The notes: a model not told the origin generated them from the letters alone. DNA of 64,000 nt from an uncultured virus (IMG/VR IMGVR_UViG_3300011375_000006) (IMGVR_UViG_3300011375_000006), one strand, 5' to 3'; shown: positions 35,337-51,444, counted from the first letter of the stretch. A program made the numbers and translations.

Positions 35337-35409
35337 TTCCATTAGTGAATAGTTAATGAGCGCACACCCATAACGGGTGACGCATAGATTTGTAGTCTTT
35401 TGGATTACT

Positions 35410-35442
35410 GCCCTTTTTCAGGGCGGGGATGTGTAAAGAGCG
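35410..35442 (-). promoter_or_regulatory. nutR (boxA-boxB)
   Basis: CGCTCTTTACACA then GCCCTGAAAAAGGGC on the minus strand. Confidence 0.9.
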
Positions 35443-35449
35443 GTGTTAC

Positions 35450-35677: not shown

Positions 35678-35693
35678 GGGCCATTCCTTTTTC

Positions 35694-35762
35694 GTACTTT
35701 CAGTTCGCATTATGGTTGAACTGAAAGTTTTTGCAAGTGCTTTACTATCGAACTCATGGTTC
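35694..35762. promoter_or_regulatory. oR operators with pR and pRM
   Basis: GTACTTTCAGTTC (35694), GAACTGAAAGTTT (35718), GAACTCATGGTTC (35750); TACTAT 7 nt before the cI ATG suggests a leaderless mRNA. Confidence 0.75.
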
Positions 35763-36469
35763 ATACTGAAAAATTGCGTGGTGAATTTGCTCAGCGGCTA
35801 GCGCAAGCCTGTAAAGAAGCTGGGTTAGATGAGCATGGAAGGGGCATGGCGATAGCCAGGGCTCTTAACGTTTCATCAAAAGGGGTCAGCAAATGGTTTA
35901 ACGCTGAAGCCCTGCCTCGCCAAGAAAAAATCAATGCTCTGGCGAAGTATTTGAAAGTTGATGTTGTCTGGCTTCAGCATGGCGTGGCTTCTGGCAAGGG
36001 TGATGCTGATTCAGATTCGGTTTCATTTGCTGGGGTTATGAAAAAAGGATTGGTTAGAGTGGTGGGAGAGGCCGTTCTTGGGCTAGATGGAGCCATCGAA
36101 ATGACAGAAGATCTTGATGGCTGGCTGAAAATTTATAGTGATGATCCTGATGCTTACGGTTTGCGTGTAAAGGGAGACAGCATGTGGCCTCGCATCAAAT
36201 CTGGTGAGTACGTACTGGTTGAGCCTAATACTTTAGTACGGGCGGGTGACGAGGTTTTTGTGCGGACATCTGAAGGTCATAACATGATTAAAGTACTCGG
36301 CTATGACCGAGACGGCGAGTATCAATTTACAAGCATTAATCAAGACCATCGCCCCATAACCTTACCCTACGATGATGTAGCAAAAATAGAGTACGTTGCA
36401 GGGGTTCTGAAGCAATCGCGGCACATGGATGATGATGAGGCGCGCGAGTGGTTAAGAAACAGGTCGTGA
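35756..36469 (+). CDS. cI: CI repressor (HTH + S24 peptidase)
   Basis: HTH; V.GDSM.P catalytic Ser; MIK catalytic Lys. Confidence 0.95.
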   Translation: MVHTEKLRGEFAQRLAQACKEAGLDEHGRGMAIARALNVSSKGVSKWFNAEALPRQEKINALAKYLKVDVVWLQHGVASGKGDADSDSVSFAGVMKKGLVRVVGEAVLGLDGAIEMTEDLDGWLKIYSDDPDAYGLRVKGDSMWPRIKSGEYVLVEPNTLVRAGDEVFVRTSEGHNMIKVLGYDRDGEYQFTSINQDHRPITLPYDDVAKIEYVAGVLKQSRHMDDDEAREWLRNRS

Positions 36470-36643
36470 CTGCTAGCAGTGGCCTGAGGATATCTTTGAG
36501 TAGGGATCAGTAGTGATTTTCTCATGTATATAATCACAGCAAGGCTTGACTTTTGTAAAATTAATCATATTTGAGTTGTCAAGGTCTGTCTTTCAGGTAC
36601 ACTTCAATCAAGCTCCTATATGCGAGCTTTTGAGGAGAACAAA

Positions 36644-36940
36644 ATGAAAATCTTACGTTGCATGGCCTACCAGCAGGATGGTGTATTTGTCGCTGCATGT
36701 TTAGACCTATCTCTTGCAGCGCAAGCAGACACTATGCGTGAAGCTATGGATAAGCTTGAATCTCAAATTAAAGATTTCCTTACTGAGGCGCTTTCTGAAC
36801 CTCAGTACGCAGAACAACTGTTAAAAAGAAAGGCTCCACTTTCTATGTGGTTGAAGTATTGGGTGGTTGCATTTCAGGTTTTCGTGAGAAAACGCGAGCA
36901 AGCCAAGCTGTTCGCGGAACCCTGTGATTCACTTGCATAG
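36644..36940 (+). CDS. HicB-like antitoxin without a DNA-binding domain
   Basis: VAACLDL.LAAQ.DT..EA...L...I; GAGGAG RBS. Confidence 0.7.
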   Translation: MKILRCMAYQQDGVFVAACLDLSLAAQADTMREAMDKLESQIKDFLTEALSEPQYAEQLLKRKAPLSMWLKYWVVAFQVFVRKREQAKLFAEPCDSLA

Positions 36941-36949
36941 GTGAAGTGA

Positions 36950-37234
36950 ATGTTTCGGAAAAAATTAACGCCATTGAAGTACGAAGAAGTCATCAGGGGC
37001 TTAAAGAAGATGGGATTTGAAATGAAGCCCAGGTCCGGAACATCTCACGAGCAATGGATCTTAAAAAATAGCAAAGGGAAGTGGGTGGTTACTGTAGATC
37101 AGCATCACGCTCCGTTTTCCAAGGACTTAATAAAATCCATGGCAAAGCAAGCAGGGATCAAGGACAGACATTTCCACGCCCTGTGCCGTGGCGATGCCAC
37201 ACTTGAGCAAATAGGTTTTGAAATAGTCAGCTAA
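36950..37234 (+). CDS. hicA: HicA family toxin
   Basis: EVIRGLKKMGF...GTSHEQW...VTV..H...LIKSM.KQAG. Confidence 0.85.
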   Translation: MFRKKLTPLKYEEVIRGLKKMGFEMKPRSGTSHEQWILKNSKGKWVVTVDQHHAPFSKDLIKSMAKQAGIKDRHFHALCRGDATLEQIGFEIVS

Positions 37235-37258
37235 CCCGGCCACCGCGCCGGGTTTTTT
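37233..37258 (+). terminator. Terminator after hicA (timm-like)
   Basis: AACCCGGC-CACCGC-GCCGGGTTTTTT. Confidence 0.85.
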
Positions 37259-37266
37259 ATTGCCCG

Positions 37267-37476
37267 TTAGTCAATCGCAGCACTTCCCTTTCGCACTATC
37301 TCCGCCGCATCCCTGTTAACCCCTTTCCCAATCACGTTACCCGTTTCTTTTCGGTACTGCTCCAGCTTTTCAACGACCGCTTCCTGAGTTATCGGCTGAT
37401 TGGCGAGCGATAGCTCCATAATCGCCCGCCCCATAGCTGCAACCATCATGTTCACGCGCTCCTCGTCCAGACTCAT
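37267..37476 (-). CDS. Small hypothetical protein
   Basis: Helical 69-aa ORF convergent on the terminator. Confidence 0.55.
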   Translation of the reverse strand: MSLDEERVNMMVAAMGRAIMELSLANQPITQEAVVEKLEQYRKETGNVIGKGVNRDAAEIVRKGSAAID

Positions 37477-37602
37477 AGCCAATCCCCGCTCAGATTTTGA
37501 CCATCACAAGCTATCACAGGTGGATTGATAAGGCATTTACAAAAATAAATAACCTTATAAATCAATATCGAACCAAGAGAACGAAAGATTTATTAAAATT
37601 TC

Positions 37603-37644
37603 GTACTTATGGTTCTTGCATAACTCGAACTATTGGTTCAATAT
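37603..37644 (+). promoter_or_regulatory. oL/pL
   Basis: GTACTTATGGTTC (37603) and GAACTATTGGTTC (37627) match the oR consensus; TTGCAT-N17-CAATAT. Confidence 0.75.
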
Positions 37645-37683
37645 AAGTCCATCAGCAGGACGCACTAATCACCAGGACGGTGA

Positions 37684-37714
37684 TGCTCATTAACAGAGGG
37701 CCCTGAAAAAGGGC
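37684..37714 (+). promoter_or_regulatory. nutL (boxA-boxB)
   Basis: TGCTCATTAACA then GCCCTGAAAAAGGGC. Confidence 0.85.
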
Positions 37715-37732
37715 AAATACACCGAAGCAGAC

Positions 37733-37809
37733 AGCTTCTGGATGATGTGAATTGCAGCCGCCAGACGGCAACCGCGAGGATAAGCGACGCGGCGCATCAT
37801 CCAAAAGCT
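37733..37809 (+). promoter_or_regulatory. RNase III-type stem in the N leader
   Basis: AGCTTCTGGATGATGTG / CGCATCATCCAAAAGCT, followed by lambda-like AACTGACAGGAG. Confidence 0.7.
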
Positions 37810-37826
37810 AACTGACAGGAGGATGT

Positions 37827-38084
37827 ATGAACGCACAAGAACGCCGCCGCGAACGACGCGCCGCTAAACAGGCAGACTGGAAATCAGCTAACCCCCTGTT
37901 AGTGGGTATCAGCGCCAAGCCGGAGCGAATTACGCTGAAGCTTAACCGCAAGGTTGACCGTGTGGCTAAGGCATTAATCGCGCAGGACACAAAGTATTAC
38001 GACAGTGCAGACAACCGTTGCCTGCCAGAAGTAGCGATGTACAGCGCGGGATATCGTAAATCAAACAACGTTACAGCGAGGTAG
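37827..38084 (+). CDS. N: Early antiterminator N
   Basis: MNAQERRRERRAAKQADWKSANPLLVG arginine-rich motif. Confidence 0.95.
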   Translation: MNAQERRRERRAAKQADWKSANPLLVGISAKPERITLKLNRKVDRVAKALIAQDTKYYDSADNRCLPEVAMYSAGYRKSNNVTAR

Positions 38085-38086
38085 GT

Positions 38087-38224
38087 ATGGAAGATTACTG
38101 GCTTGGCGTATGCGTGGGCTGGCTTCTAGGAATGGCGCTGACGTCGTGGTTGGAACGGGGGCGCATTAAAGCCTACAAAAATCATATTGCCGCATTAGAA
38201 ATGGTTATCGAGAAACTTAAATAG
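38087..38224 (+). CDS. 45-aa membrane peptide
   Basis: GAGGT RBS; MEDYWLGVCVGWLLGMALTSW. Confidence 0.5.
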   Translation: MEDYWLGVCVGWLLGMALTSWLERGRIKAYKNHIAALEMVIEKLK

Positions 38225-38261
38225 CAGAGCGCGTTACAGCGCGGTAAACAAAGGGGTGTGT

Positions 38262-38438
38262 ATGAAATTCGAAAATATTCCAGAGGATGTGCGCAGTGCG
38301 ATGATTGAAACGTATCAATTAGCAGTATGTAGTGAAAGGGCGCCAGCCGATGAGACCAGCGCTGCCTTGCAGAAAAAAAGACTGGAACTGCTCGCAGATA
38401 ATCTACGTAGCGGGTTTAAAAAGCTTATTTCTGATTAG
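38262..38438 (+). CDS. Hypothetical protein
   Basis: MKFENIPEDVR...; AAGGGG RBS. Confidence 0.5.
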   Translation: MKFENIPEDVRSAMIETYQLAVCSERAPADETSAALQKKRLELLADNLRSGFKKLISD

Positions 38439-38610
38439 CGGCTTCTTTCTGCACTTCTTCAAACCGATCTTTGATTTTATTGAAGGCGTTGATGAACGCA
38501 CTGCCGCGATCACTTACGTTATTGAAAGCGCCTGCTTTAGCCATCTCCAGAACCGCCTGGTAGGCGGCATCTACAGGATAGAGCACTACATCAACATTAC
38601 TGTTAGACAT
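38425..38610 (-). CDS. Counter-oriented small moron protein
   Basis: AAGGA RBS; P..AAYQ.VLE..KAG.F. Confidence 0.55.
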   Translation of the reverse strand: MSNSNVDVVLYPVDAAYQAVLEMAKAGAFNNVSDRGSAFINAFNKIKDRFEEVQKEAANQK

Positions 38611-38789
38611 TGTCTATTTCCTTAAATTGCCTGTGGAATAAGCAATTTAGCAGTTTCCTTTGTCTGTGGAAAGTGAAGGAAATCACGCGCCGGGCGTGGC
38701 TAAACATCCCGGCAATCATTCAAAGGTCGCTTAGGCGGCCTTTTTTATTAGCAACGTTAACAGAGGTGAGGGATATCAAATACCGATTA

Positions 38790-38928
38790 AGCGCTGTGTA
38801 TTCATTCTTCTGAGTGGATACACCGAGCAATATCGCTCGTAATCAGTCAGGAGCGAAGACCTGTCTGGTTAGATTGAGAAATCATCCCTTGATGTTTATT
38901 TGCCCGGCTTAATGTCGGGCATTTTTTT
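38790..38928 (+). ncRNA. Candidate Hfq-type sRNA in the pL operon
   Basis: Several hairpins, single-stranded AAATCATCCCTTGATGTTTATTT, then terminator GCCCGGC-TTAAT-GTCGGGC-ATTTTTTT; no ORF. Confidence 0.55.
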
Positions 38929-38997
38929 AGCTGCATCTGAGTAATGGTTAATCAGCCATTAGCCACATGCAATCACACAATCAACAGGAGCATACCC

Positions 38998-39171
38998 ATG
39001 CAAGCACTAGCAATTGCAGGGGCGGCATCGGTTCGCCCTTTCGACCCAATTTTATCTATTCAGCATTCACGCAAACATATTTTAACAGGCGCTGACTTTA
39101 AACAACCCCGCCTTAAAAGCTGGCTTGAGCGCCTTGTTGAGTTCCTGAACCAAAAGGCAATGCAGCCATGA
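38998..39171 (+). CDS. CIII-like protein
   Basis: MQA.AIAG start and W..RL...LNQ end resemble lambda CIII; AGGAG RBS; position. Confidence 0.55.
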   Translation: MQALAIAGAASVRPFDPILSIQHSRKHILTGADFKQPRLKSWLERLVEFLNQKAMQP

Positions 39172-39261
39172 ATACGCCGTTAAAGACTGGTCAGACGATG
39201 CGTTTATTCGCCTGATGAAAGACCTGTTAAAGCCTGAAAAGAAAGAACAGGAGAAGCAGCA

Positions 39262-39555
39262 ATGAAGCTCTCATTTAAAGAACGTCAGGAACTCGACCAG
39301 ATTGTCGCGACACTGACCGATTACGATAACGAGCAAATCAGTAATCAGGTTGACCGACTGGCTGCCAAAGCCAACCCGTTAATTAGCGCCCTGCTCGACT
39401 TCCAGCCCGACGAATTCACAAAGGATGCGGTATCCATCATGGAAGATGGCGAGGCGCTTGAAGCTGCGTTTATCGCGGTTATTGAGGAGCGTATTAAGTG
39501 GGAATACGCGCTGGGTATTTTCATGAACCGGCACAGTTATAAAGGAGCGGCGTGA
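39262..39555 (+). CDS. Hypothetical protein
   Basis: ORF coupled to the exonuclease gene. Confidence 0.6.
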   Translation: MKLSFKERQELDQIVATLTDYDNEQISNQVDRLAAKANPLISALLDFQPDEFTKDAVSIMEDGEALEAAFIAVIEERIKWEYALGIFMNRHSYKGAA

Positions 39556-40376
39556 TGGAAAGCGGCGTTTATTACAACCTTCCCGCAGATGAATATCACA
39601 GGGACGAGGCAATCGGATCCACTTCAGTTAAATCAATCAGCATCAGTCCGGCAAACCTGTACTTCAACCCATTCAAGGGAAGCAAATCTGCGCATCTGGG
39701 TAGTGCCATTCACTCAGCATTGCTGGAGCCAGATTTATTCAAAAGAGACTACTTGTTAATGCCAGACGTAGCATCAAGAAGCATGAAGGAATACAAAAAC
39801 GCAGCCGAATGGACAAGACCGGATTACATTCTGGTCGGAAGTGAGGTTGAAACAGTAAACCGGATGTTCGATTCATCCAGGCTGAATGACGACTTCATGC
39901 ACTACATGAATACGAAGGGGCATTCAGAAGTATCTGTGTTTGCTGAATGTCCTGAGACGGGCTTAAAACTTAAATGCCGGTTCGACAGACTGTCAGAATC
40001 TCTACCCTACCCCCTTGATATTAAAAGTTGCAGGGATGCAACAGAGCGAGGATTTAGTAACGCATTCGGTCAGTATAAATATCACATTCAGGCGGCCTTC
40101 TATCTTTATGTCCTCAAGCTGGCTACCGGGATTGAATATAACCAGTTCGCATTCTTCGCCATTGAAAACTCGCCGCCTTATCGGAATTGCATGTATTACA
40201 TCGGTGAAGATTCACTGGAGCTTGGTTACCGGGAAATGTTCGCAGCCCTAAAAAAGTTGAAGGAATGCAACGCCGATGAATCATTAAAGTACGAAGGGAT
40301 TGTACTCCCATCAAACGAAATTAACGTTCCGGCCTATTTACTGGATGAAGAATACTCAGATGAGGTAATTCTCTAA
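39552..40376 (+). CDS. RecE/exonuclease VIII-like PD-(D/E)XK nuclease (DUF3799)
   Basis: EYH, GSAIH...LEP, KCRFD, D.KS, YHIQAAFY. Confidence 0.85.
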   Translation: MMESGVYYNLPADEYHRDEAIGSTSVKSISISPANLYFNPFKGSKSAHLGSAIHSALLEPDLFKRDYLLMPDVASRSMKEYKNAAEWTRPDYILVGSEVETVNRMFDSSRLNDDFMHYMNTKGHSEVSVFAECPETGLKLKCRFDRLSESLPYPLDIKSCRDATERGFSNAFGQYKYHIQAAFYLYVLKLATGIEYNQFAFFAIENSPPYRNCMYYIGEDSLELGYREMFAALKKLKECNADESLKYEGIVLPSNEINVPAYLLDEEYSDEVIL

Positions 40377-40957
40377 TGGACCTGTCACGCACAATTATTC
40401 CCAAATCCGACCAGATTAACTTTGAAGATGTTCAGTCACAAAGCATCACTGCCGTAATCAAATCAGTACGCGCCGGTAATTCCGAACAGCCCGTTTTTAT
40501 TGACCTTGAAGGATTTGATGGTCGCCCTTACAAGCCATCTAAATCAATGCGTCGCGTTTTAATCGGTGGCTGGGGCGCTGATGGTCATTCGTGGGTTGGT
40601 CGTTCTCTGACACTTATTGGTGACCCGTCCGTTAAGTTCGGCGGTGTCGCTGTCGGCGGCATCAAGATTTCTGCAATGAGCGATGTTGAAGGTGACTTTT
40701 CTATGATGCTTTCAGTATCTCGCGGTAAGCGACAGGAGCATCGTGTTAAAAGACTTGAGGTGACCAAGAAAATTACCGACCCGCAGGAGATACTCAACTG
40801 GTTTAGCTCCAACGCTTTGAAGGCCGACTTAACGTCATTGAAAACCGCTTACGACCGGGCGAATAAAGCGCTGGAAGGCAATGTAGAGCACCTCAATAAA
40901 CTCAAAGAAGTTTACGAGATAAGGCAAAAAGAGCTCGAACAAAATGTACAGGCGTAA
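40376..40957 (+). CDS. Putative recombination partner (candidate SSAP/SSB)
   Basis: TI.PKSDQ.N.ED, KP.KSMRRVL...WG.D...W.G; sits in the RecT/Bet slot. Confidence 0.5.
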   Translation: MDLSRTIIPKSDQINFEDVQSQSITAVIKSVRAGNSEQPVFIDLEGFDGRPYKPSKSMRRVLIGGWGADGHSWVGRSLTLIGDPSVKFGGVAVGGIKISAMSDVEGDFSMMLSVSRGKRQEHRVKRLEVTKKITDPQEILNWFSSNALKADLTSLKTAYDRANKALEGNVEHLNKLKEVYEIRQKELEQNVQA

Positions 40958-41153
40958 AGATATTTACGCAGTTCGAAGCAATCAACTCAGCCAGGGAAGG
41001 CCATGGTCAGACAAGGAAATAGAAACAGTTAAGCGCCTCGCCGGAACAATCAAAACCAAAGCAATCGCTCGCAAAATCAACCGCTCATATGAATCTCTGC
41101 GCCAGATGGCAAAGCGCGAAGGGATTCGCTTTGTCCGAAGGAACACATCATGA
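40944..41153 (+). CDS. Small HTH/Myb-like protein
   Basis: W...E...., IARKINRS..S.R..A. Confidence 0.6.
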   Translation: MYRRKDIYAVRSNQLSQGRPWSDKEIETVKRLAGTIKTKAIARKINRSYESLRQMAKREGIRFVRRNTS

Positions 41154-41311
41154 ATGGTCAATACAACCCCGATATATCCCCCGGCGACCTGGTAATTCGT
41201 CGCAGATTTAAGCCAATGCCAGACCGCGAAGAATTACTCAAACGCCACAGTTTTCCCGGCCCGGATGATAACCGCTACATCAGCCTGATGATTAAAGGAG
41301 TGCGGAAATGA
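41150..41311 (+). CDS. 53-aa lambdoid protein (DUF2737-like)
   Basis: YNP.I.P.DL..R....PMP.REELLKR.SFP. Confidence 0.6.
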   Translation: MNGQYNPDISPGDLVIRRRFKPMPDREELLKRHSFPGPDDNRYISLMIKGVRK

Positions 41312-41730
41312 CAGATAACAATAAACATCTGGTTCGTGTTGGACACGAATTTGAGGCGGCAATGAGTGACGACACGCCGATCATCACGATTGCGAAGATG
41401 GTGACCGAGCTTGCATCGGCGCTGGACGTGCAGAGTGCGCGTAGTGATGCGCTGGATGTTGATAATTCGGCGCTTAACAAGTTCATCAAAGATGATTGCT
41501 GGATTTGGGATGACAAGAGTGAAGAGTATTTCGACGCTGCTGACTGTATGCCAGAAACCCCCGCAACGGGCGCATGGGTGAACGAACAGCGGGCGGCGGG
41601 TGCGACTCGGGTCGAAACCAATTTACGGGCTTGCTATGAAGAATTCCCCGAATCATCACGGGACATCGTAGACGAGTGCATCCAAATCGCTGCCAATGCC
41701 GCAGCACAGCTTCGCGGGGGCCAGGTATGA
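41308..41730 (+). CDS. Eae-like protein
   Basis: ELAS.LDV, ETPAT.AW..E.RA.G, AAQLR.G. Confidence 0.65.
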   Translation: MTDNNKHLVRVGHEFEAAMSDDTPIITIAKMVTELASALDVQSARSDALDVDNSALNKFIKDDCWIWDDKSEEYFDAADCMPETPATGAWVNEQRAAGATRVETNLRACYEEFPESSRDIVDECIQIAANAAAQLRGGQV

Positions 41731-42482
41731 TCCATTACCACGGCGGGCCAATAACGCCCGACACCTGCGCGCTAAAGGCGTGGCGAGCGAGGCACGCTTT
41801 CATCTCGTTCGCCCATGCCGGCCAGATAAATCTCGCATCTGAATACTGCCAGTCATTCGCATTGGACAACGGTGCATTCACAGCATGGAAAGCAGCTGGC
41901 AAAAACAAAATCGACTGGAGTGATTATTACGAGTTCGTCGCGAGATGGAAAAACCACCCTGGCTTTGATTTTGCGATCATTCCTGACGTCATCGACGGCG
42001 GCGAGGACGAGAACGAGTCGCTACTGGATGAGTGGCCGCACGGCGCGTTTTTCGGCGTTCCGGTCTGGCACATGAACGAATCCGATGGGCGTTTTATCAG
42101 GCTCTGCAATGAATATCCGCGCGTAGCAATCGGTAGTTGCGGTGACTACGACGTTAAACGCCCAAACCTCGCCGTGGCGCGGATGAAAGACCTGATTCGC
42201 CACGTCACTGACGATCACGGCCAGCCGATTACTAAGCTGCACGGCTTGCGGATGCTTAACCCGCTAATTTTCACCAAACTGCCCCTCGCGAGCGCCGACA
42301 GTACGAACGTTGCCAGGAATATCGGCATCGACAAGGCCTGGTCAGGAGCATACGCGCCAGCAAGCAAAGAGACGCGCGCCGCGCTGATGGTTGAGCGGAT
42401 CGAGTCACATAACAGCCCCGGCTCACTCGCGTACTGCGAGAAACGAGACCGGTTCGACTTTCAATTACAGCTGGCGGTGTGA
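41727..42482 (+). CDS. TGT/DpdA-like TIM-barrel protein
   Basis: LDNGAF, PDVI, PVWH, HGL and SADST motifs in TGT-like order. Confidence 0.55.
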   Translation: MIHYHGGPITPDTCALKAWRARHAFISFAHAGQINLASEYCQSFALDNGAFTAWKAAGKNKIDWSDYYEFVARWKNHPGFDFAIIPDVIDGGEDENESLLDEWPHGAFFGVPVWHMNESDGRFIRLCNEYPRVAIGSCGDYDVKRPNLAVARMKDLIRHVTDDHGQPITKLHGLRMLNPLIFTKLPLASADSTNVARNIGIDKAWSGAYAPASKETRAALMVERIESHNSPGSLAYCEKRDRFDFQLQLAV

Positions 42483-42483
42483 A

Positions 42484-43140
42484 ATGACCATGACAGCAGA
42501 ACAACTGGCGCAACTGCGCGAAGTTGGCGAAAAACGGTTTCTTTTCACTGCGACCGTGAAACATGTGGAAGGGTATCAGACGTTCTTTGTGGACGCGGAA
42601 ACACAGGAAAAAGCCGAGGCCGGAATCGAAAATGGCGAGGGGCAGATTTACGAGCAGGAGCTGGATGTTACCGACCTTGACGACTTCATACTTGACCGCG
42701 TGACCACCACTGATGATTTCGGCGACTACCCGCCAATATCTGAAGCTGACCTGGTGCGTATGGAATACAACGCGGCGCTTTGCGAGATGCTACCCGGCAT
42801 CCAGTACATGGATCTGCCAGACGGAGGAAGCGTTACGCCTCTGGAGCAAATGCGCCGGATGGTTGCTGATTATCGCCAGCGGATCGCTGAACTGGAGTCG
42901 ACAAAACGGGATTCCGCAAGATGGTTCAAGGCGTTTGAAAAAGCTGTTTCCGTTGGTGCCCGGTATGAGGAGCGCATAGCTGAACTGGAAGCGCGGACGG
43001 TCACTGTGAAGTTGCCCGAATCGCCAGGCCCAATGTCTTTAGGCGCAAAAACTGTTTACTGCGGGATTGTGGCGGATGTTGTTGCGTCTTTTCAGCAAGC
43101 CTGCGCAGCTGCTGGCATCAATTTAACGGTGGAGGGGTGA
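42484..43140 (+). CDS. Ead/Ea22-like mosaic protein
   Basis: YMD.PDGG.VT..EQ, RIAELEARTV.VKLP, AAGI. Confidence 0.6.
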   Translation: MTMTAEQLAQLREVGEKRFLFTATVKHVEGYQTFFVDAETQEKAEAGIENGEGQIYEQELDVTDLDDFILDRVTTTDDFGDYPPISEADLVRMEYNAALCEMLPGIQYMDLPDGGSVTPLEQMRRMVADYRQRIAELESTKRDSARWFKAFEKAVSVGARYEERIAELEARTVTVKLPESPGPMSLGAKTVYCGIVADVVASFQQACAAAGINLTVEG

Positions 43141-43145
43141 GGGAT

Positions 43146-43328
43146 ATGAAACTTGAATTTACTCCGGCCCAACTTGAGGCTCTTAAACGCCTGACTGATG
43201 ACGTCGATTCTATGATTGGTTGCGGTGAATCCGAGTCGGATACGACATGGGCAAAGAACGTTGACTTAATAGACCGGATGTTAAAGAAAAACGGCCTTTC
43301 ACGATATTTTAAGCAGGAGCGGGACTAA
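43146..43328 (+). CDS. Hypothetical protein
   Basis: ORF with GAGG RBS in the operon. Confidence 0.5.
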   Translation: MKLEFTPAQLEALKRLTDDVDSMIGCGESESDTTWAKNVDLIDRMLKKNGLSRYFKQERD

Positions 43329-43330
43329 CC

Positions 43331-44161
43331 ATGACAATCAACGAACGCGTATCAGATGAGCGCATCGCGAATCTAATCGAAGTGCTGAGCTTTTATTCAC
43401 CAGAAGATAAGCACCTGGCTAACAATGAGTCAGAACTGGCGTCAGCGCTACGCGAGCTACAGCAGTACCGCGCCGCCGCTGAGAAGCCGGTAGCCTGCAT
43501 TGACCGGGCTAACCTGGATTACTTTGATTCTGGAGCTGGCGCTGATGTCTGGCCTGCATCAGAGTCTGATTCAGATGATGTGTTGCTCTACGCAGCACCA
43601 CAGTTACCGCAGCCAGCGCCGGTAGCTGTGCCTGATGAGATGGAAATGGATGATGACTTTGATAGCGCGTTTGAACACGGAAAAGCTGTTGGCTGGAACG
43701 CCTGCCGCGCCGCCATGCTTCAGGGTAAAGCCGAACCTGTTAGCCAGCCTTACACGTTGCCGTTGGACTACCTGCAAGGCTACAAAGACGGTTGCGAGTG
43801 GTCCGCTCTAATGGCAGAAGCTAATCATCCGCAAACAGGTGACTGGCTTTACGATGATCCACTGGAGTTAGCTAAAGCTATCCGCAAGGGGCCGGATATG
43901 TTGCCAACAGCGCCTGATTTTCGGGAAATCCCGAATTCGTCAACCAACAATTGTCGGGAAAACGCGGATTCGTCAACCAAATGCTGGTGTCACACCTGCC
44001 GCCCGGTAACGATGACCGATATGCGATTCGTCGTGTGCCCTGAATGTGGAAACAAGCGCTGCCCTCACGCTAATGACCACAGGAACGCTTGCACCGGAAG
44101 TAATGAACCTGGACAGGAAGGCAGCGCATACCCCGACGCACCGAAGCAGGAGGCTGAATGA
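43331..44161 (+). CDS. Eaa-like mosaic protein with C-terminal Cys cluster
   Basis: PVA, LYAAPQ, GWNACRAAML, CPECGNKRCPHANDH. Confidence 0.7.
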   Translation: MTINERVSDERIANLIEVLSFYSPEDKHLANNESELASALRELQQYRAAAEKPVACIDRANLDYFDSGAGADVWPASESDSDDVLLYAAPQLPQPAPVAVPDEMEMDDDFDSAFEHGKAVGWNACRAAMLQGKAEPVSQPYTLPLDYLQGYKDGCEWSALMAEANHPQTGDWLYDDPLELAKAIRKGPDMLPTAPDFREIPNSSTNNCRENADSSTKCWCHTCRPVTMTDMRFVVCPECGNKRCPHANDHRNACTGSNEPGQEGSAYPDAPKQEAE

Positions 44162-44355
44162 TGCGCACCGTAGAGTTGACTAACGCGGCGCTGGTATTCA
44201 CCGACGCAGCAACCGGTCAGGGATATCTTCGCGTTCTGAACGAGTGGGAAGCCAAACTGGTTTCTGCACAACTTACCGCGCTGGATGATGGCGAAATGAA
44301 AGCCGTCCCTGTTCACCCGGTAGAGATTCGCAAGATGAAGCCGGGCGGTGAGTGA
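44158..44355 (+). CDS. Hypothetical protein
   Basis: Translationally coupled ORF. Confidence 0.55.
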   Translation: MMRTVELTNAALVFTDAATGQGYLRVLNEWEAKLVSAQLTALDDGEMKAVPVHPVEIRKMKPGGE

Positions 44356-44693
44356 TGCCTGAATCAGCAGCAGTACGCAAAGCAAAGCAGCGTGCCCGCC
44401 AGGCCGCCGCTGGTGAGCGCAAGCTTGAATTGACGCTCGATGCGCAGGAGCTGGAAATGCTGGCGCGTAACTGCGCCGCCCGGCGCCCCGGCAAAGACCC
44501 ATACGACATGGCGGAGTATATCTCGTTGTTGATTCGCCAGGACGATGCCCGCGCCCGTGGCCGCATTAAGTCGATCAGCACCAGGCAATGTGGCAAGTGC
44601 GGCGATCGGCTCCCGGTAAATAGTTGCCCCTGCCAGGGTGATTCACAATGCTGGGTAACCAGCGGATGGCATGAAGTTAAGTTAGTAGTGTGA
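44352..44693 (+). CDS. Putative RHH-like/Zn-finger DNA-binding protein typical of epsilon15-like phages
   Basis: RKA.QRARQ...G.RKLEL.LD, EYI.LLIR.D, CGKCG....C.C. Confidence 0.6.
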   Translation: MMPESAAVRKAKQRARQAAAGERKLELTLDAQELEMLARNCAARRPGKDPYDMAEYISLLIRQDDARARGRIKSISTRQCGKCGDRLPVNSCPCQGDSQCWVTSGWHEVKLVV

Positions 44694-44745
44694 CATGTCA
44701 CGGAAACGTAACCGCAACCCTCTTGCAATAATCGCCTCCTGATTA

Positions 44746-44764
44746 TACTGTTTATGCATACAGT
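44746..44764. promoter_or_regulatory. LexA (SOS) box overlapping a -10 element
   Basis: TACTGTTTATGCATACAGT; TATACT at 44744-44749. Confidence 0.8.
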
Positions 44765-44781
44765 GTTTATCGGGAGGCATC

Positions 44782-45102
44782 ATGATTATTCGCTATCTCC
44801 TTGAGTCAAAATATTTCATTCTTTCGCCCGGCGACGTTCTGAAGTCGTCCGTCCTGTGCGCCGACCAGGATAAACAGATTTTCGTGATCTGGTATTGCTC
44901 GCCAGGCTGGCACGTCGCGGAGTACCTCTGGCACCGGCGCTGGGAAAAACTGACCAGCAATGTCTTTGAGAATGAGGCCTACGCCTACCAGTACGCGGTT
45001 GATTTCTTCATGGCCAGGCGGGAAAAGAAATTGCCGCCGCGAATGTCGTTTGACGCGCATCTTGAGCAGCTTGGCGTAAAAGTTCACGGTATTGCGCTAT
45101 AG
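44782..45102 (+). CDS. Hypothetical protein, probably SOS-regulated
   Basis: GGAGG RBS just downstream of the LexA box. Confidence 0.65.
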   Translation: MIIRYLLESKYFILSPGDVLKSSVLCADQDKQIFVIWYCSPGWHVAEYLWHRRWEKLTSNVFENEAYAYQYAVDFFMARREKKLPPRMSFDAHLEQLGVKVHGIAL

Positions 45103-45122
45103 CGGTAACAGCATGGTATTCT

Positions 45123-45139
45123 GTTACCATTGCGGTAAC
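45123..45139. promoter_or_regulatory. TTACC-N5-GGTAA operator upstream of terS
   Basis: GTTACCATTGCGGTAAC; same palindrome at 48405-48421. Confidence 0.6.
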
Positions 45140-45156
45140 AATTTCGTGAGGATGCC

Positions 45157-45732
45157 ATGGCGAAACGACCATCAACACAGTTTAAGCATCTGACGGTTAT
45201 CCAGGAGGCTTACTGTCAGGAGTACATCAAATCCCCTGAGAATCAGACTCAGGCGGCGATTAATGCAGGTTATTCACCCAAGACAGCCGCAAAGTTTGCC
45301 AGTCAGAATATGCGTGATGAGCGCATCCAGAAACGGATTGCTGAGTTGATGACTGAGCGTAACAAACGCCTGAAGGTCAGTGCGGATTATGTCCTGAACC
45401 GGCTGGTGGAGATCGACCAGATGGACGTGATCGACATCCTCAATGACGACGGTGGATTAAAGCCGATCAGTCAGTGGCCAAAGATATGGCGCACCACGCT
45501 GAGTGGACTGGATATCTCGACAACGATCACCAACTTCGACGAAACCACGCTGGAAAACATGCTCAAGAAAATCAAATGGCCGGACAAGGTGAAGAACCTC
45601 GAGCTGATTGGTAAGCACGTCGACGTCAACGCGTTCAAAGACCGCGTGGAGGTATCAGGCACGGTCACCATTGCCGACCGCATGGCAGCCGCCAGGAAGC
45701 GCCTGAAAGAACGGCAGGGCGGTGAACAGTGA
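45157..45732 (+). CDS. terS: Terminase small subunit (podovirus module)
   Basis: N.TQAAI.AGYS.KTA, KIKWPDKVKNLELIGKH. Confidence 0.9.
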   Translation: MAKRPSTQFKHLTVIQEAYCQEYIKSPENQTQAAINAGYSPKTAAKFASQNMRDERIQKRIAELMTERNKRLKVSADYVLNRLVEIDQMDVIDILNDDGGLKPISQWPKIWRTTLSGLDISTTITNFDETTLENMLKKIKWPDKVKNLELIGKHVDVNAFKDRVEVSGTVTIADRMAAARKRLKERQGGEQ

Positions 45733-47204
45733 CCGCCGCAGCCATGTCGCCGGAAGAGCAGCTTGTTGAAGACATTGCCAGCTTTACGCACGATCCGCTG
45801 GGATATGCGCTGTATGCGTTCCCCTGGGGCGAAGATGGCGGAGAACTGGCGCACGCTGCCGGGCCTCGCCAGTGGCAGGCTGATACATTCCGGGAAATAG
45901 GCGAGCACCTTCAAAACCCGGCGACGCGGCACCAGCCGTTGATGATTGCCCGCGCATCCGGTCACGGTATCGGTAAATCGGCGTTTATCTCAATGCTGAT
46001 TAACTGGGGCATGTCCACCTGCGAGGACTGCAAGGTTGTTGTGACCGCCAACACCGAAAACCAGCTGCGCACCAAAACATGGCCGGAAATCATCAAGTGG
46101 TCGAACATGGCGATCACCAGGGACTGGTTCACTACCACTGCAACCGCGATGTACAGCAACGATCCGGGCCACGACAAGCGCTGGCGCGCCGACGCCATTC
46201 CATGGAGTGAGCACAACACCGAAGCGTTTGCCGGTCTGCACAACGAGCGTAAGCGCATCATCGTGGTATTCGATGAAGCCTCCAATATCGCAGATCTGGT
46301 ATGGGAGGTTGCCGAGGGCGCGCTGACGGACGAAGACACCGAAATTATATGGGTGGCGTTCGGTAACCCGACGCGTAACACCGGGCGTTTCCGTGAGTGC
46401 TTCCGCAAGTATAAGCACCGCTGGAAGGCAAAGCAGATCGACAGCCGAACGGTGGAAGGCACGAACAAGGAGCAGCTCCAGAAGTGGGTGGACGACTACG
46501 GCGAGGATAGCGATTTTGTGAAAGTACGCGTGCGCGGGATATTCCCGGATGCGTCAGAGCTGCAGTTTATCCCGACAGGTCTCACTGACGAGGCGATGAA
46601 GCGCGTGGTGACCGCTGCGCAGGTGGCGCACGCTCCGGTGATTATCGGAGTTGACCCGGCTTATTCCGGCGTGGATGAAGCGGTGATATACCTGAGGCAG
46701 GGGCTGCACAGCAAAGTGTTATGGACTGGCAGTAAAACCACCGACGATCTGATTATGGCGAAGCGCATCGCTGACTTCGAGGACCAGTACCAGGCTGACG
46801 CGGTGTTTATCGATTTCGGCTACGGCACCGGCCTGAAGTCCATCGGCGACGGCTGGGGACGCTCCTGGCAGCTTGTGCCGTTCGGCGGCGCATCGACTGA
46901 CCCGCAGATGCTCAACAAGCGTGGTGAGATGTTCAACAGTTGCAAAACGTGGCTTAAGCTTGGCGGTGCGCTGGATGACCAAGAAACAGCTGATGATTTG
47001 TCGGCGGCAGAGTACAAGGTGCGGGTGGACGGCAAGATAGTTATGGAGCCGAAAGAGGATATCAGAGACCGTATCGGGCGATCTCCAGGCAAGGGCGATG
47101 CGCTGCTGCTGACCTTTGCTTTCCCGGTGGCGAAGCGGTTGCGCATTCCGGGGCAGGATGGGCAGCAGGGCCGGGCCATCACTGAATACGATCCGTATGC
47201 TTAA
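45729..47204 (+). CDS. terL: Terminase large subunit (podovirus module)
   Basis: ASGHGIGKS, FDEAS, GNPTR, GVDPA, SP..GDA. Confidence 0.93.
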   Translation: MTAAAMSPEEQLVEDIASFTHDPLGYALYAFPWGEDGGELAHAAGPRQWQADTFREIGEHLQNPATRHQPLMIARASGHGIGKSAFISMLINWGMSTCEDCKVVVTANTENQLRTKTWPEIIKWSNMAITRDWFTTTATAMYSNDPGHDKRWRADAIPWSEHNTEAFAGLHNERKRIIVVFDEASNIADLVWEVAEGALTDEDTEIIWVAFGNPTRNTGRFRECFRKYKHRWKAKQIDSRTVEGTNKEQLQKWVDDYGEDSDFVKVRVRGIFPDASELQFIPTGLTDEAMKRVVTAAQVAHAPVIIGVDPAYSGVDEAVIYLRQGLHSKVLWTGSKTTDDLIMAKRIADFEDQYQADAVFIDFGYGTGLKSIGDGWGRSWQLVPFGGASTDPQMLNKRGEMFNSCKTWLKLGGALDDQETADDLSAAEYKVRVDGKIVMEPKEDIRDRIGRSPGKGDALLLTFAFPVAKRLRIPGQDGQQGRAITEYDPYA

Positions 47205-47368
47205 TTTCAGCAGGTTACATCACTCGGAATACAGGGGTGTAAGTATTTTATCAATGAAATCAGAGCCCTCAAAATTGAGGCGGGCCTTTAAAAGGCAGAT
47301 TTCTAGCCTTTTAGTTCATCCAGTAGGACTCCTTGAAATCAAGGCCTCTTAAGTGCTCTGAATCAATC

Positions 47369-47393
47369 AAAAAGCCCGCGCATCGGCGGGCTT
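47369..47393 (-). terminator. Terminator of the leftward accessory operon
   Basis: Plus strand AAAAAGCCCGC-GCATCG-GCGGGCTT. Confidence 0.7.
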
Positions 47394-47416
47394 AATGTGA
47401 GACATAGCTCAGTTTT

Positions 47417-47542
47417 TTAGTAGTCATCATCACTATCTTTCATCGCAGATCGGAAGACCAGCGCAGCGATACCTACCACAACCGCCGCGCCGCCGATGGC
47501 GAGCCACATCCACAAACTAAGTTCGCTCATGATTCGCTTCAT
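47417..47542 (-). CDS. 41-aa single-TM peptide
   Basis: MKRIMSELSLWMWLAIGGAAVVVGIAALVFRSAMKDSDDDY. Confidence 0.5.
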   Translation of the reverse strand: MKRIMSELSLWMWLAIGGAAVVVGIAALVFRSAMKDSDDDY

Positions 47543-47559
47543 CGTGACATGTCACCGCA

Positions 47560-47853
47560 TCAATCAGTTGTATTCCCGCCTATGGAAAATGGCAAGTTAT
47601 TGCTTACGAGCTCATCAATTTTATTCTGAGCGGCATCGCGTGCTTGCTGTAGCTTCTCTATAGAGGCTTTCTTTTCAGAGATGATTTTTTTTAGGCCTTC
47701 TCGCATTTCCTTATCGAAAACGATATCAATGCCGAGACCACTAAGCTGGATTGTTTTCCCTTGTTCAGCGCGTTCAACAGCGCCATGTAATGCAGACAAT
47801 TCATAGCACAAGTCATCGATTATTCGATCAATGTTTCTTACGGAGATGGTCAT
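47560..47853 (-). CDS. Hypothetical coiled-coil protein
   Basis: AAGGTG RBS before MTISVRN. Confidence 0.6.
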   Translation of the reverse strand: MTISVRNIDRIIDDLCYELSALHGAVERAEQGKTIQLSGLGIDIVFDKEMREGLKKIISEKKASIEKLQQARDAAQNKIDELVSNNLPFSIGGNTTD

Positions 47854-47865
47854 GGTTATCACCTT

Positions 47866-48405
47866 AAAAAAATGCCCGGCGAACCGGGCGAACAAAAGCC
47901 AATGGGAGTTACGGGGTTTACAACAGAAAGCCATCGCGATGACGTTCTGGTGTAAAAAGGGCGGCATCAGGAAAGGATTCAAAAAAACCTGTGCCGCCAA
48001 GATTTACACTGGTACTGCGTTATCACGGTCCTAAGCGTGATTCTGTCGTGGGCCAGATGCTTATCTTCTGGTTGCCTCAATGGGCTGCAATTCACCACAA
48101 CGGAAAGAGCACTGACTTCGAGCAGACCTTGCGCGCAGGAACGACGATCAATCTCAATGCTTTTACCTGTTGCGTCCTCGTCTCTTCCGAGGTGTCACAC
48201 CGTACCGCCACGATGGTGAGTCGTTGGTTCGTGCTATGACCCGATGGCTTGCACATTCCGGCTACCCGTTCGGGGATAAGTAACATCAAGGAACCCCGTC
48301 GGACCGCTGCGACGCATGTGCCATACGCCGTACATCTTGCCGGTTACGTCTCCGGCGAGGGCTTCCACCTCTCGTCTGGCTTTTCCACGCAAGCGCGTGC
48401 TTGTG
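47866..48405 (-). ncRNA. ~540-nt multi-module structured non-coding transcript (candidate sRNA array)
   Basis: Bounded by a TTGACA-N17-TACCTT promoter and GCCCGG-TTCG-CCGGGC-ATTTTTTT terminator; tiled with stems; no credible ORF. Confidence 0.7.
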
Positions 48406-48442
48406 TTACCTAAAAGGTAATAATTACACCGTAATATGTCAA
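48405..48442 (-). promoter_or_regulatory. Strong sigma70 promoter with overlapping operator
   Basis: TTGACA (48442-48437), 17-bp spacer, TACCTT (48419-48414); GTTACCTAAAAGGTAAT covers the -10. Confidence 0.75.
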
Positions 48443-48510
48443 TACCCTACGCTAAATAATCCTTATGTGGTTAAATTGGTAATAATTTAATCGTGTGCGG
48501 AGTCATTGAA

Positions 48511-48717
48511 ATGTGCATGGGTAGCTCACCATCAGTACCGGCAGCGCCGGAAATCCAGGCGGCACCGCAGGAGCAGGACGCGGCTGTTGTTGCATCCCGC
48601 GACGATGAAATGCGCCGCCGTCGTGCCGCAGCAGGCCGCAACTCCACGCTGCTGACCGGCGCACAGGGTGACACCTCAGCCGCTAATACCAGCGGTAAAA
48701 CGCTGCTGGGCCAGTAA
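48511..48717 (+). CDS. Small protein preceding the portal gene
   Basis: MC.G..P.VP, RRR..AGR.ST.LTG, GKTLLGQ. Confidence 0.75.
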   Translation: MCMGSSPSVPAAPEIQAAPQEQDAAVVASRDDEMRRRRAAAGRNSTLLTGAQGDTSAANTSGKTLLGQ

Positions 48718-48726
48718 GGGATCGTC

Positions 48727-50409
48727 ATGGCCGGGACAAACGAAACCATCAAAGAGCAATTGCTGAAACAGTTTGCTCAACTGGAAAATGACCGGTCGTC
48801 ATTCGATCCGCACTGGCGCGACCTCACTGATTTCATCAACCCTCGCGGCTCACGCTTCCTCACTTCTGAGGTGAATCGCGGCGAGCGGCGCAACACCAAA
48901 ATCGTTGACCCAACGGCGACCATGGCAAACCGGACACTGTCCAGCGGCATGATGTCCGGCATCACCAGCCCGGCCCGTCCGTGGTTCCGTCTGGCGACGC
49001 CTGACCCTGACATGATGGATTACGGCCCGGTTAAGCTGTGGCTCGAAATCGTGCAGCGCCGCATGAACGACATGTTCAATAAGTCGAACCTTTACCAGTC
49101 ACTGCCCCTGCTTTACGGCAGCCTGGGCACGCTGGGCACCGGCGCTATGGCTGTGCTTGAAGATGACGACGACATTATCCGCACGATGATGTTCCCGATT
49201 GGCAGCTACTGGCTGGCAAACTCTCCACGCGGGAGCGTTGATACCTGCTTTCGCAAGTTCTCAATGACCGTTCGTCAGATCGTCATGGAATTTGGCCTGG
49301 ATAAGGTCAGCACGTCAGTTAAAAGCATGTGGGAGTCGGGCAACTACGAGCAGTGGATCGAAGTGATGCACTCTGTTTTCCCGAACATAAACCGCGATAC
49401 GGCAAAGCTCGACAGCAAAAACAAGCTGTATAAGTCCGTCTATTTCGAGGTTGGCGGCGACAGTGACAAAGTGCTGCGCGAATCAGGCTACGACGAATTC
49501 CCCATCATGGCGCCGCGCTGGGAAGTCAACGGCGAGGACGTCTACGGTTCATCCTGCCCTGGCATGATTGCCCTTGGTCAGGTTAAAGCCCTTCAGCTTG
49601 AGCAGAAGCGCAAGTCACAACTGATCGACAAAGCCACTAATCCGCCTATGGTCGGGCCTTCATCGCTTAAAAACCAGCGAGTTTCCCTGCTGCCTGGCGA
49701 CATCACGTATATCGACCAGATGGGCAATCAGGATGGCTTCAAACCTGCTTACCTGGTTAACCCGAACACGGCCGACCTGCTGGCCGACATTCAGGATACG
49801 CGGCAGGTGATCAACAGCGCCTACTTCGTTGACCTGTTCATGATGCTGCAGCAAATCAACACGCGCTCAATGCCGGTTGAAGCTGTTATCGAGATGAAAG
49901 AGGAAAAGTTACTGATGCTCGGTCCGGTTCTGGAACGTCTCAACGACGAATGCCTTAACCCGCTGATTGACCGCGCTTTCTCGATGATGGTGAAAAAGAA
50001 CATGCTTCCTCCGCCTCCGGATGTGCTTAGCGGCACGCCGCTGCGCGTGGAATACATCTCCGTTATGGCGCAGGCGCAGAAGTCTATCGGCCTGTCCAGC
50101 CTCGCCAATACCGTGACGTTTATCGGTCAGCTTGCAGCGGCGAAACCTGAAGCGCTCGACAAGCTGAACGTGGATCAGGCGATCGACACGTTCGCCGACA
50201 TGTCCGGGGTATCTGCAACGGTCATCCTTCCTCAGGAGCAGGTGAACAAAATCCGCCAGGACCGCGCACAACAGCAACAGATGCAGCAAAACGCAGCCAT
50301 GGCAATGGCGGCGGCGCAGGGCGCCAAGACTCTAAGCGAAGCGCAAACATCAGATCCAAGCGCACTGACAGCGCTCACCCGCGCAGCGGCGGGAGGTAAT
50401 CAGCAATGA
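48727..50409 (+). CDS. Portal protein (T7 gp8/epsilon15-like)
   Basis: GITSPARPWF.L, EEKLLMLGPVLERL..E.L.PLI.R, VEYIS.MAQAQK. Confidence 0.93.
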   Translation: MAGTNETIKEQLLKQFAQLENDRSSFDPHWRDLTDFINPRGSRFLTSEVNRGERRNTKIVDPTATMANRTLSSGMMSGITSPARPWFRLATPDPDMMDYGPVKLWLEIVQRRMNDMFNKSNLYQSLPLLYGSLGTLGTGAMAVLEDDDDIIRTMMFPIGSYWLANSPRGSVDTCFRKFSMTVRQIVMEFGLDKVSTSVKSMWESGNYEQWIEVMHSVFPNINRDTAKLDSKNKLYKSVYFEVGGDSDKVLRESGYDEFPIMAPRWEVNGEDVYGSSCPGMIALGQVKALQLEQKRKSQLIDKATNPPMVGPSSLKNQRVSLLPGDITYIDQMGNQDGFKPAYLVNPNTADLLADIQDTRQVINSAYFVDLFMMLQQINTRSMPVEAVIEMKEEKLLMLGPVLERLNDECLNPLIDRAFSMMVKKNMLPPPPDVLSGTPLRVEYISVMAQAQKSIGLSSLANTVTFIGQLAAAKPEALDKLNVDQAIDTFADMSGVSATVILPQEQVNKIRQDRAQQQQMQQNAAMAMAAAQGAKTLSEAQTSDPSALTALTRAAAGGNQQ

Positions 50410-50705
50410 CAGACCTCTATGAAGATGAACAGCCGAGCGCTGAGCAACTGAAGCGCATGGCAGAGCGCGAAGAGCGAGACGCCGAAGATATCCGTTTTGT
50501 TATGGGCTCCGAGCGTGGCCGCCGCGTTGTGTGGCAGGTGCTTGGACAGGGAAAGGTGTTTGCCGCCTGCTTTGCCGCTGATCCGCATATCACAGCTTTC
50601 AACGAAGGGCAGCGCAATCTGGCGCTGGCGCTGTTTCAGCGCGTTATGACCTGCTGCCCCGAACTCTATCTGAAGATGGCTGATGAAGCCGCTAAACAGG
50701 AGTGA
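50406..50705 (+). CDS. Conserved small protein (Bbp19-like)
   Basis: VM.SE.GRRVVW, AFNEGQRN. Confidence 0.75.
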   Translation: MTDLYEDEQPSAEQLKRMAEREERDAEDIRFVMGSERGRRVVWQVLGQGKVFAACFAADPHITAFNEGQRNLALALFQRVMTCCPELYLKMADEAAKQE

Positions 50706-50707
50706 TC

Positions 50708-51430: not shown

Positions 51431-51444
51431 GAGAGGATATAACC

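Follow-up and report, generated by a model that had tools for sequence, protein, structure and literature searches.

How does a lambda-type prophage come to read, on one strand and with no integrase in between, into the late genes of an unrelated phage? The question is raised by a 64,000-nucleotide stretch of DNA from an uncultured virus (IMG/VR record IMGVR_UViG_3300011375_000006), the whole of which we refer to as the window. Following a host flank (1-344), bases 345-41,311 form a lambda-type prophage, the pL operon of which continues through a series of small 'ea' genes into an epsilon15-type late module. We propose that a lambda-type prophage and the genome of an epsilon15-type (Uetakevirus-like) phage were really joined here by homologous recombination, a reading to which we give a probability of about 0.55. 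Fusion by recombination is an already documented kind of event; particular to this case are two unrelated virion modules and a shared ea cassette as the bridge between them.

Two virion modules with no integrase between them

Genes were called from an open reading frame (ORF) map together with PHROG and Pfam scans (Table 1). Divergent cI and cro, cII, N, cIII, O/DnaB-type replication genes, nin genes, Q, lysis genes and late genes were all present, as the lambdoid plan has them. An earlier interpretation made without database searches (the sequence-only reading) had described a pL operon with N, cIII, RecE-like and ea genes that continues on the same strand into epsilon15-like late genes, and a pR/Q side serving a full myovirus module. 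The PHROG and Pfam calls agree with the former, and minus-strand PHROG matches extending from cro to the fibres with the latter. The late module on the plus strand follows the epsilon15 order (terS, terL, portal, protease, capsid, tail tube, internal virion proteins), and its terS-terL DNA is 80 to 82% identical to that of epsilon15, phiV10 and their relatives. The interval from terL to portal (47,204-48,727) holds no tRNA; Escherichia coli and Klebsiella relatives have a tRNA-Arg at this place.

No strong plus-strand terminator was found between 38,921 and 47,651. Transcripts from pL that carry the N modification would therefore be expected to cross the ea cassette and enter terS and terL.

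That no integrase, attachment site (att) or host gene separates the two modules had been claimed as well, and searches of this interval came back empty. Using tblastn, lambdoid xis and int (from locus L026) and epsilon15-type int, repressor and DnaT-like proteins (from L040) had no match in the window. It also contains no detected tRNA, no long direct repeats and no second copy of the att-side sequence 324-351. None of these searches showed an att or int remnant within 41.3-45.1 kb. The epsilon15-type RecT of L040 gave one weak partial match (40,748-40,936). Save for this match, the genes proper to the early part of epsilon15-type phages (their own int, early-left RecT/nuclease, repressor and DnaT/P-type replication genes), which precede the ea genes in L040, L001 and L087, are absent from the window. 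The xis-int genes and att site that end a lambdoid pL operon were not found within the window and could lie past its end.

The RecT-like stretch (36% identity over 67 residues) falls within a 193-amino-acid (aa) protein encoded 3' of the RecE-like gene (40,376-40,957). The 193-aa protein may be the annealing partner.

These results bear directly on simple tandem or nested site-specific insertion, in which both prophages would be complete. Integration of one prophage into another at att sites within prophages is common in E. coli (PMC8112680). The present joint has DUF2737 on one side and the ea genes leading to terS on the other, there is no int, xis or att core in 36-64 kb, and such an insertion should be bordered by epsilon15-type int, repressor and replication genes, which are absent. 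Since the joint is without att and int, we take site-specific insertion to be excluded for practical purposes.

An ea cassette carried by both phage types

Nine small plus-strand ORFs lie between DUF2737 and terS, the last of them ending at 45,102. From IMG/VR we collected 46 loci with the 140-aa protein encoded at 41,308-41,730 and 80 with the 113-aa protein encoded at 44,352-44,693, seven contigs being in both sets. Loci were classed by marker proteins. Lambdoid on both sides required any of N, cIII and DUF2737 before the small gene and xis-int after it; epsilon15-type on both sides required any of repressor, RecT and DnaT before it and terS/terL after it. In the 140-aa set, nine loci were lambdoid on both sides, six were epsilon15-type on both sides, one (L035) was epsilon15-type upstream with lambdoid xis-int downstream, and the other 30 were unclassed on at least one side. 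The 113-aa set held 44 loci that were epsilon15-type on both sides, none that were lambdoid on both sides and none with epsilon15-type markers upstream and lambdoid ones downstream; no member had lambdoid markers upstream. Altogether 60 of the 126 loci could be classed on both sides, and 59 of these stay within one phage type, L035 being a reverse chimera.

The two parental plans are thereby recognisable, and both had been stated by the sequence-only reading: lambdoid ea genes that lead to xis-int (9 of the 46), and epsilon15-like phages with ea-type genes before terS (6 of the 46 and 44 of the 80). At the lambdoid end in L026, the 65-aa gene of the cassette is followed by xis (HTH_17), int (PF00589, 1.3e-44) and host folD. 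In L040, E. coli BE311 and a Klebsiella prophage, the epsilon15-type order is guaA, int, leftward early genes, repressor, cro, replication genes, ea-type genes and terS.

The layout of the window, with lambdoid markers upstream and epsilon15 late genes downstream, occurs in none of the 46 and none of the 80 loci. This count also speaks against one natural phage genome having such a layout. Unbroken reading frames would suit that explanation, and against it stand two complete sets of terminase, portal and capsid genes, and more than 63 kb of phage DNA as opposed to 38-47 kb in complete relatives of either type. We hold it to be improbable in the extreme.

The window was then compared in 100-base bins with 21 lambdoid-class and 12 epsilon15-class loci, leaving out L035 and the unclassed loci. 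Up to 41,300 the matches came from lambdoid loci only, no epsilon15-class match beginning before 41,314. From 41,300 to 44,300 both classes matched at 83 to 100%, barring a few bins: that at 41,600 was lambdoid only, that at 43,000 epsilon15 only, and those at 43,100-43,300 (around 43,161-43,327) were matched by neither class. From 44,300 on, only epsilon15-class loci matched. Within finer limits, the 3 kb from 41,314 to 44,369 form a pool of small ea genes carried by close relatives of both phage types, which share stretches of 0.4-1.1 kb at 97 to 100%. Lambdoid similarity ends at 44,369 (blastn), where lambdoid relatives go on into xis. The joint is thus a middle sequence common to both parent classes with flanks specific to each, as seen on relatives rather than on the true parents. 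The sequence-only reading had singled out 41,300-45,160; this region does link both modules, though not as one junction but as a cassette region common to both phage types, and the bin map supports its proposal that shared ea genes were the site of exchange.

The 140-aa gene at the left edge of the pool is conserved in both classes over its first 142 bases; epsilon15-class similarity begins at 41,314-41,316 and lambdoid similarity covers 41,143-41,455. Distant homologues were found in Shiga toxin (Stx) lambdoids and in the epsilon15-like phage TL-2011b. RefSeq names distant homologues ead/Ea22-like; for the gene itself this name has a weak foundation, at 38.5% identity over 43% of the protein. 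The 140-aa protein gave no Pfam or NCBIfam match and no BLASTP match to the like-named BE311 gene.

Two relatives approach the window from either side. The lambdoid L006 matches it at 96 to 99% over 35,075-41,477, colinear over 39,077-41,477 at 96%, and beyond 41,477 has its own ea genes, followed by xis and int. On the other side, L168 is a 7,617-base contig, the left 2.7 kb of which are 99 to 100% identical to L038, a provirus fragment that encodes an int, a repressor and replication proteins of epsilon15 type. In L168 the 140-aa gene is represented by a distinct 274-aa version, after which colinearity with the window sets in, over 41,701-43,161 at 97.8% and over 43,327-46,918 with a single mismatch in 3,592 bases. 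L168 is accordingly a near-identical, unrecombined epsilon15-type relative. The window looks like an L006-like left part followed by an L168-like right part. Because L006 matches to 41,477 and L168 is colinear from 41,701, the join would lie in or just after the 140-aa gene and appears to be recent. A crossover at the 65-aa gene (44,137-44,369), our first guess, was dropped since L168 is colinear from 41,701.

No single lambdoid parent was found among L006, L005, L002 and L010. They share the pL region with the window at 88 to 99%, their late modules are quite different, and on the late side they match only in the region of the UmuD-like gene.

Two cassette genes merit separate mention. The 251-aa DpdA-like gene (TGT fold; phrog_887, 2.2e-97) stands alone in the cassette and has 98% identity in both the lambdoid L005 and the epsilon15-type L168. 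The 63-aa ORF (43,137-43,328) has no PHROG, Pfam or NCBIfam match, and its DNA is matched in none of the 33 classed relatives; L168 has another stretch, of 175 bases, in its place.

Routes to the joint and the case for an assembly error

On the recombination reading, the lambdoid prophage would have been located between the host DUF465/dsbB side and ycgN, in a host population in which both phage types carried the same small ea gene pool in the same reading direction. The lambdoid copy of the pool stands at the distal end of the pL operon, directly before xis-int, and the epsilon15-type copy at the distal end of the early-right operon, directly before terS. A crossover within the pool, most likely in or just after the 140-aa gene, would give one product with lambdoid immunity and pL joined to epsilon15 late genes, and a second joint at which epsilon15 early genes lead to xis-int. 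Both phage types encode RecE/RecT-type recombination genes. Of this account, the gene anatomy, the presence of the cassette in both types and the unrecombined relative L168 are observed; the recombination and its topology are inferred.

A joint of the second kind exists. L035, a 12,139-base provirus from another sample, is colinear with the epsilon15-type L040 and L042 through the early-left genes (an epsilon15-type RecT among them), repressor, DnaT-like gene and ea genes to the 65-aa gene, and from that gene onward is 98.5% identical to the lambdoid L026 through xis and int. Its crossover lies in the 65-aa gene, within a shared piece of about 233 bases with unlike flanks. L035 shows that the two phage types can occur joined the other way round. 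Its crossover gene differs from that of the window, so that L035 is not the matching product of the same event; the reciprocal product expected by the sequence-only reading is therefore present as a type of joint, albeit in a provirus of another sample. The sample that yielded L035 also contains a 28-kb epsilon15 late contig that starts 737 bases before the 113-aa gene and ends after tailspike, holins, endolysin, spanin and a Phd-type antitoxin gene. Those 737 bases are 98 to 100% identical to lambdoid ea genes; as ea genes are shared, this is no proof of a lambdoid link.

The topology of the event can be considered against host chromosomes. Probes for ycgN-dsbB and for guaBA lay on the same strand, 0.64-0.81 Mb apart, in all five chromosomes tested. 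If the lambdoid prophage had the orientation it has in the window, and an epsilon15-like prophage stood at guaA with the orientation of L001 and L087, the two cassettes would be inverted repeats, and a crossover between them would invert the intervening segment, producing the layout of the window and an L035-type counterpart. Inversion, which the sequence-only reading had named alongside deletion, is thus geometrically possible. It takes the largest share of the recombination reading, though taken by itself we hold it only tentatively. Deletion looks unlikely because the prophages would have to be neighbours, which does not apply to the usual epsilon15-type site at guaA; its share is very small.

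Between these two in weight is a cointegrate, which the sequence-only reading, in suggesting a chimera that may be unable to excise, had not considered. Here a circular epsilon15-like genome would have entered the lambdoid prophage whole by one crossover in the ea cassette. In that layout xis-int-attL would lie intact about 40 kb rightward, past a complete epsilon15-like genome and a second cassette, and a reverse crossover would free both phages. Such insertion would be a single event with no rearrangement of the chromosome; it predicts the observed joint without att or int, its predicted right-hand joint has the layout of L035, and no ORF of either module is broken within the window. Against it, the window stops 20 kb into the epsilon15 part, short of the predicted right-hand joint, and the epsilon15 late contig from the sample of L035, a provirus by its classification, stops at the edge of a gene, past the lysis and Phd-type antitoxin genes, where a host junction fits better. 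We consider a cointegrate unlikely. A wider form of the idea, which we regard as doubtful, would have the ea cassette act as a landing pad that passes between temperate phages of unrelated families: one crossover would allow integrase-free lysogeny, the late genes would come to lie behind an N-antiterminated pL and a reverse crossover would provide the exit, the window representing the left joint and L035-type loci the right.

The chief rival to any recombination event is a chimera made during assembly. Here the source would have contained two ordinary prophages, a lambdoid one with xis-int and an epsilon15-like one with its early genes, and the assembler would have crossed over in the shared ea cassette, for which the near-identical stretches described above offer the means. 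Several further observations favour this alternative or otherwise weigh against a real join. In many related IMG/VR contigs an end lies no more than about 1 kb from the 140-aa gene (for example L010, L012, L028, L038 and L039). The first three bases of the window coincide with the stop codon of the DUF465 host gene. Such an edge suggests a predicted provirus trimmed out of an assembly, possibly one of short reads, and not a chromosomal tile. Parts of the mosaic 140-aa gene are found in both classes, and the lambdoid L005 also has 41,700-42,518, at 98.3%; for these two reasons we do not narrow the crossover point further. The inversion geometry assumes an epsilon15-like partner at guaA in this host. 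The join is known only from assembled sequence, and a cassette stretch of this kind invites false joins as much as real crossovers.

Moreover, the same arrangement was found nowhere else in the loci, genomes and contig scans searched. In addition to its absence from the IMG/VR loci, it was not among the best matches from 1,233 matching E. coli genomes, and a search of 401 Enterobacteriaceae genomes with 39,500-46,500 found 24 with single-gene pieces and none that was colinear. The 276-aa protein of the cassette identified seven loci among genome contigs, none of them close. An exact scan with a 50-base stretch from the window end and a gapped pattern running from DUF2737 to the start of the DpdA-like gene each gave no matches in viral or in metagenome contigs.

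Sequencing reads were approached by way of their assembled contigs. The best run contained 0.47 of the sampled window words. Logan contigs of four runs (X1-X4) over 36,000-52,000 were short, and none spans from before 41,300 to beyond 44,400; they carry no weight either way. One X1 contig equals the window over 39,177-41,384, with one other letter, and stops at 41,384. The summed depth in X1 rises from about 9-10 to 22-27 over 41,340-42,407, summed depth not being copy number.

Other points run counter to an assembly error. A false join and a true crossover would have the same sequence, and the window holds no direct sign of error. The joint in L035 passes through a shared piece that is easily spanned by reads, and real exchanges of this kind are well documented (PMC7430833). 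The short contigs do not bridge the joint, the cassette breaks related contigs and a false join would be indistinguishable from a true crossover; we therefore keep to the modest odds given at the outset for a real recombinant and regard an assembly chimera as a serious possibility of less than even chance.

Flanking features and known systems

The features on which this account is based are collected in Table 1.

Table 1. Features of the 64,000-nucleotide window, in order of position.
Feature	Position	Strand	Evidence and remarks
DUF465 host gene	1-228	-	NCBIfam PRK11415 2.2e-34; Pfam DUF465
Phage arm of attR	353-556	.	Host similarity ends at about 344-352; bases 391-560 in 14 other genomes, 78-93% identity
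UmuD-like gene, phage-borne beside att site	557-958	-	phrog_3469 6.8e-46
Myovirus virion module	962-23,732	-	PHROG: terS 23,256-23,732, terL, portal, MuF-like, protease/scaffold, capsid 16,483-17,517, sheath 12,861-14,339, tape measure, baseplate, fibre, fibre assembly
Lysis cassette (holin, endolysin, Rz-like) and Q (27,035-27,652)	24,707-27,652	-	PHROG
Lambdoid pR operon: cro (start uncertain), cII, O-like, DnaB-like, NinB, HNH, RusA	28,179-35,764	-	PHROG
cI repressor	35,756-36,469	+	phrog_4 1.1e-44
HicB/HicA-like pair	36,620-37,234	+	PF07927 9.2e-12; phrog_353
pL operon: N, cIII, RecE-like, 193-aa protein, DUF2737	37,827-41,311	+	PHROG, Pfam; matched in lambdoid relatives only
N	37,827-38,084	+	PF11438 3e-17
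cIII	38,944-39,171	+	PHROG/Pfam scans
RecE-like PD-(D/E)XK nuclease	39,552-40,376	+	PHROG/Pfam scans
DUF2737	41,150-41,311	+	PHROG/Pfam scans
140-aa ea gene (distant ead/Ea22-like), likeliest join site	41,308-41,730	+	phrog_492
Shared ea cassette: DpdA-like 251 aa 41,727-42,482, ORF to 43,140, 63-aa ORF, 276-aa ORF 43,331-44,161, 65-aa ORF 44,158-44,355	41,727-44,369	+	In lambdoid and epsilon15-type relatives at 83-100%, except 43,000-43,400
113-aa (phrog_536) and 106-aa ORFs	44,352-45,102	+	Close relatives epsilon15-type only
Late module: terS, terL, portal, protease/scaffold, capsid, tail tube/nozzle, internal virion proteins	45,157-63,999	+	PHROG, Pfam; open at window end
terS	45,157-45,732	+	PF03592 2.4e-32
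terL	45,729-47,204	+	PHROG/Pfam scans
Portal	48,727-50,409	+	PHROG/Pfam scans
Capsid	51,445-52,428	+	PHROG/Pfam scans; protease/scaffold precedes
Tail proteins (tail tube/nozzle)	53,680-56,882	+	PHROG/Pfam scans
Internal virion (ejection) proteins	to 63,999	+	PHROG/Pfam scans

The host junction at the late-gene end (attR) is present in the window. Bases 1-344 have 86 to 89% identity to four Enterobacteriaceae genomes, and in genome G002 the DUF465 gene is flanked by ycgN and dsbB/nhaB. Bases 391-557 of the attR arm lie between dsbB and ycgN in G131 and G386, two of the three regions located or fetched. In G131, the only annotated region, the arm adjoins a gtrABC phage remnant, and its surroundings comprise a gtrABC cassette, an acyltransferase and an insertion sequence (IS) fragment; the arm recurs in other genera (L172, 2,258-2,407). 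The dsbB-ycgN interval looks like a repeatedly used phage integration site. The lambdoid L031, with a different integrase, resembles the window only from 553, and its UmuD-like homologue stands between int and the tail-fibre genes. An assignment of 391-557 to host DNA, with the left boundary at about 553, was rejected because the same element adjoins the phage remnant in G131. Rfam returned merely two chance-level microRNA-like matches on bases 1-1,500, both to a hairpin at 480-537.

At the DNA level the myovirus module has matches of just 75 to 76%, to Klebsiella phages. The O-like gene contains four iterons (34,316-34,443), and a PR-like promoter lies at 35,709-35,736. The cI protein is 100% identical to those of L006 and L016. 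A HicB/HicA-like toxin-antitoxin pair stands between cI and N, the position of rexAB in lambda, and is directly followed by a strong terminator (37,233-37,254).

If the joint is real, small accessory genes common to phage families would serve as crossover sites at which whole modules are fused or swapped between long-tailed lambdoid and short-tailed epsilon15-type phages. Of the two products, one would combine a double set of virion genes with the lack of an integrase, and the other would have two integration systems but nothing to build a virion with. This would bear on prophage lock-in, on chromosome inversions and on errors of prophage prediction and of phage taxonomy from draft assemblies. 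Should the joint be an artefact, it would be a warning that the ea cassette breaks or misleads prophage assemblies of Enterobacteriaceae.

A literature search, which was not exhaustive, found no fusion of lambdoid and epsilon15-type phages. Two large 'phage' records, Klebsiella ST512-KPC3phi13.3 (63 kb) and PH444 (115 kb), were considered as precedents and set aside, since each contains an epsilon15-type prophage of the usual plan, with int and early genes of its own.

Each parental type has a known counterpart. From the 113-aa gene and terS onward, with ea-type genes before terS, the window resembles an epsilon15/phiV10-type (Uetakevirus) prophage beside guaA; it differs in having a lambdoid pL operon, including N, in place of that phage's own int, early-left, repressor and replication genes. 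Its small variable genes also recall the lambdoid exo-xis (ea) region, which lies between the recombination genes and xis and is read from pL (PMC7093339 and others); the region in the window ends in terS and not in xis-int.

As for the event itself, gene exchange between temperate phages and prophages is known to proceed by relaxed homologous recombination with Rad52-like recombinases (PMC3945230). Mosaicism is there ascribed to phage recombinases that act on short imperfect homology, and both partners here have RecE/RecT-type genes; in that work a phage picks up pieces of DNA, whereas here two whole modules would be fused in a chromosome. In Shiga toxin-producing and enteropathogenic E. coli (STEC/EPEC), prophage-in-prophage and tandem clusters are reported, as are recombination and inversions between prophages (PMC8112680). 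Like those clusters, the window has two phage genomes side by side at a single locus, uninterrupted by host DNA; unlike its joint, they use att sites and integrases.

A close parallel is E. coli O157:H7, in which a 174-bp repeat in two prophages led to a 1.15-Mb inversion and a chimeric prophage pair (Sp6/Sp14 versus Phi804-7/Phi804-15; PMC7430833). Common to both would be a short repeat of two resident prophages as the crossover site, two reciprocal chimeras and no need for an integrase. In the O157:H7 case both partners are lambda-like and the exchange was proven by polymerase chain reaction and optical maps, whereas the present case, known from sequence alone, would bring together unrelated virion types and give one product with two virion modules and no integrase.

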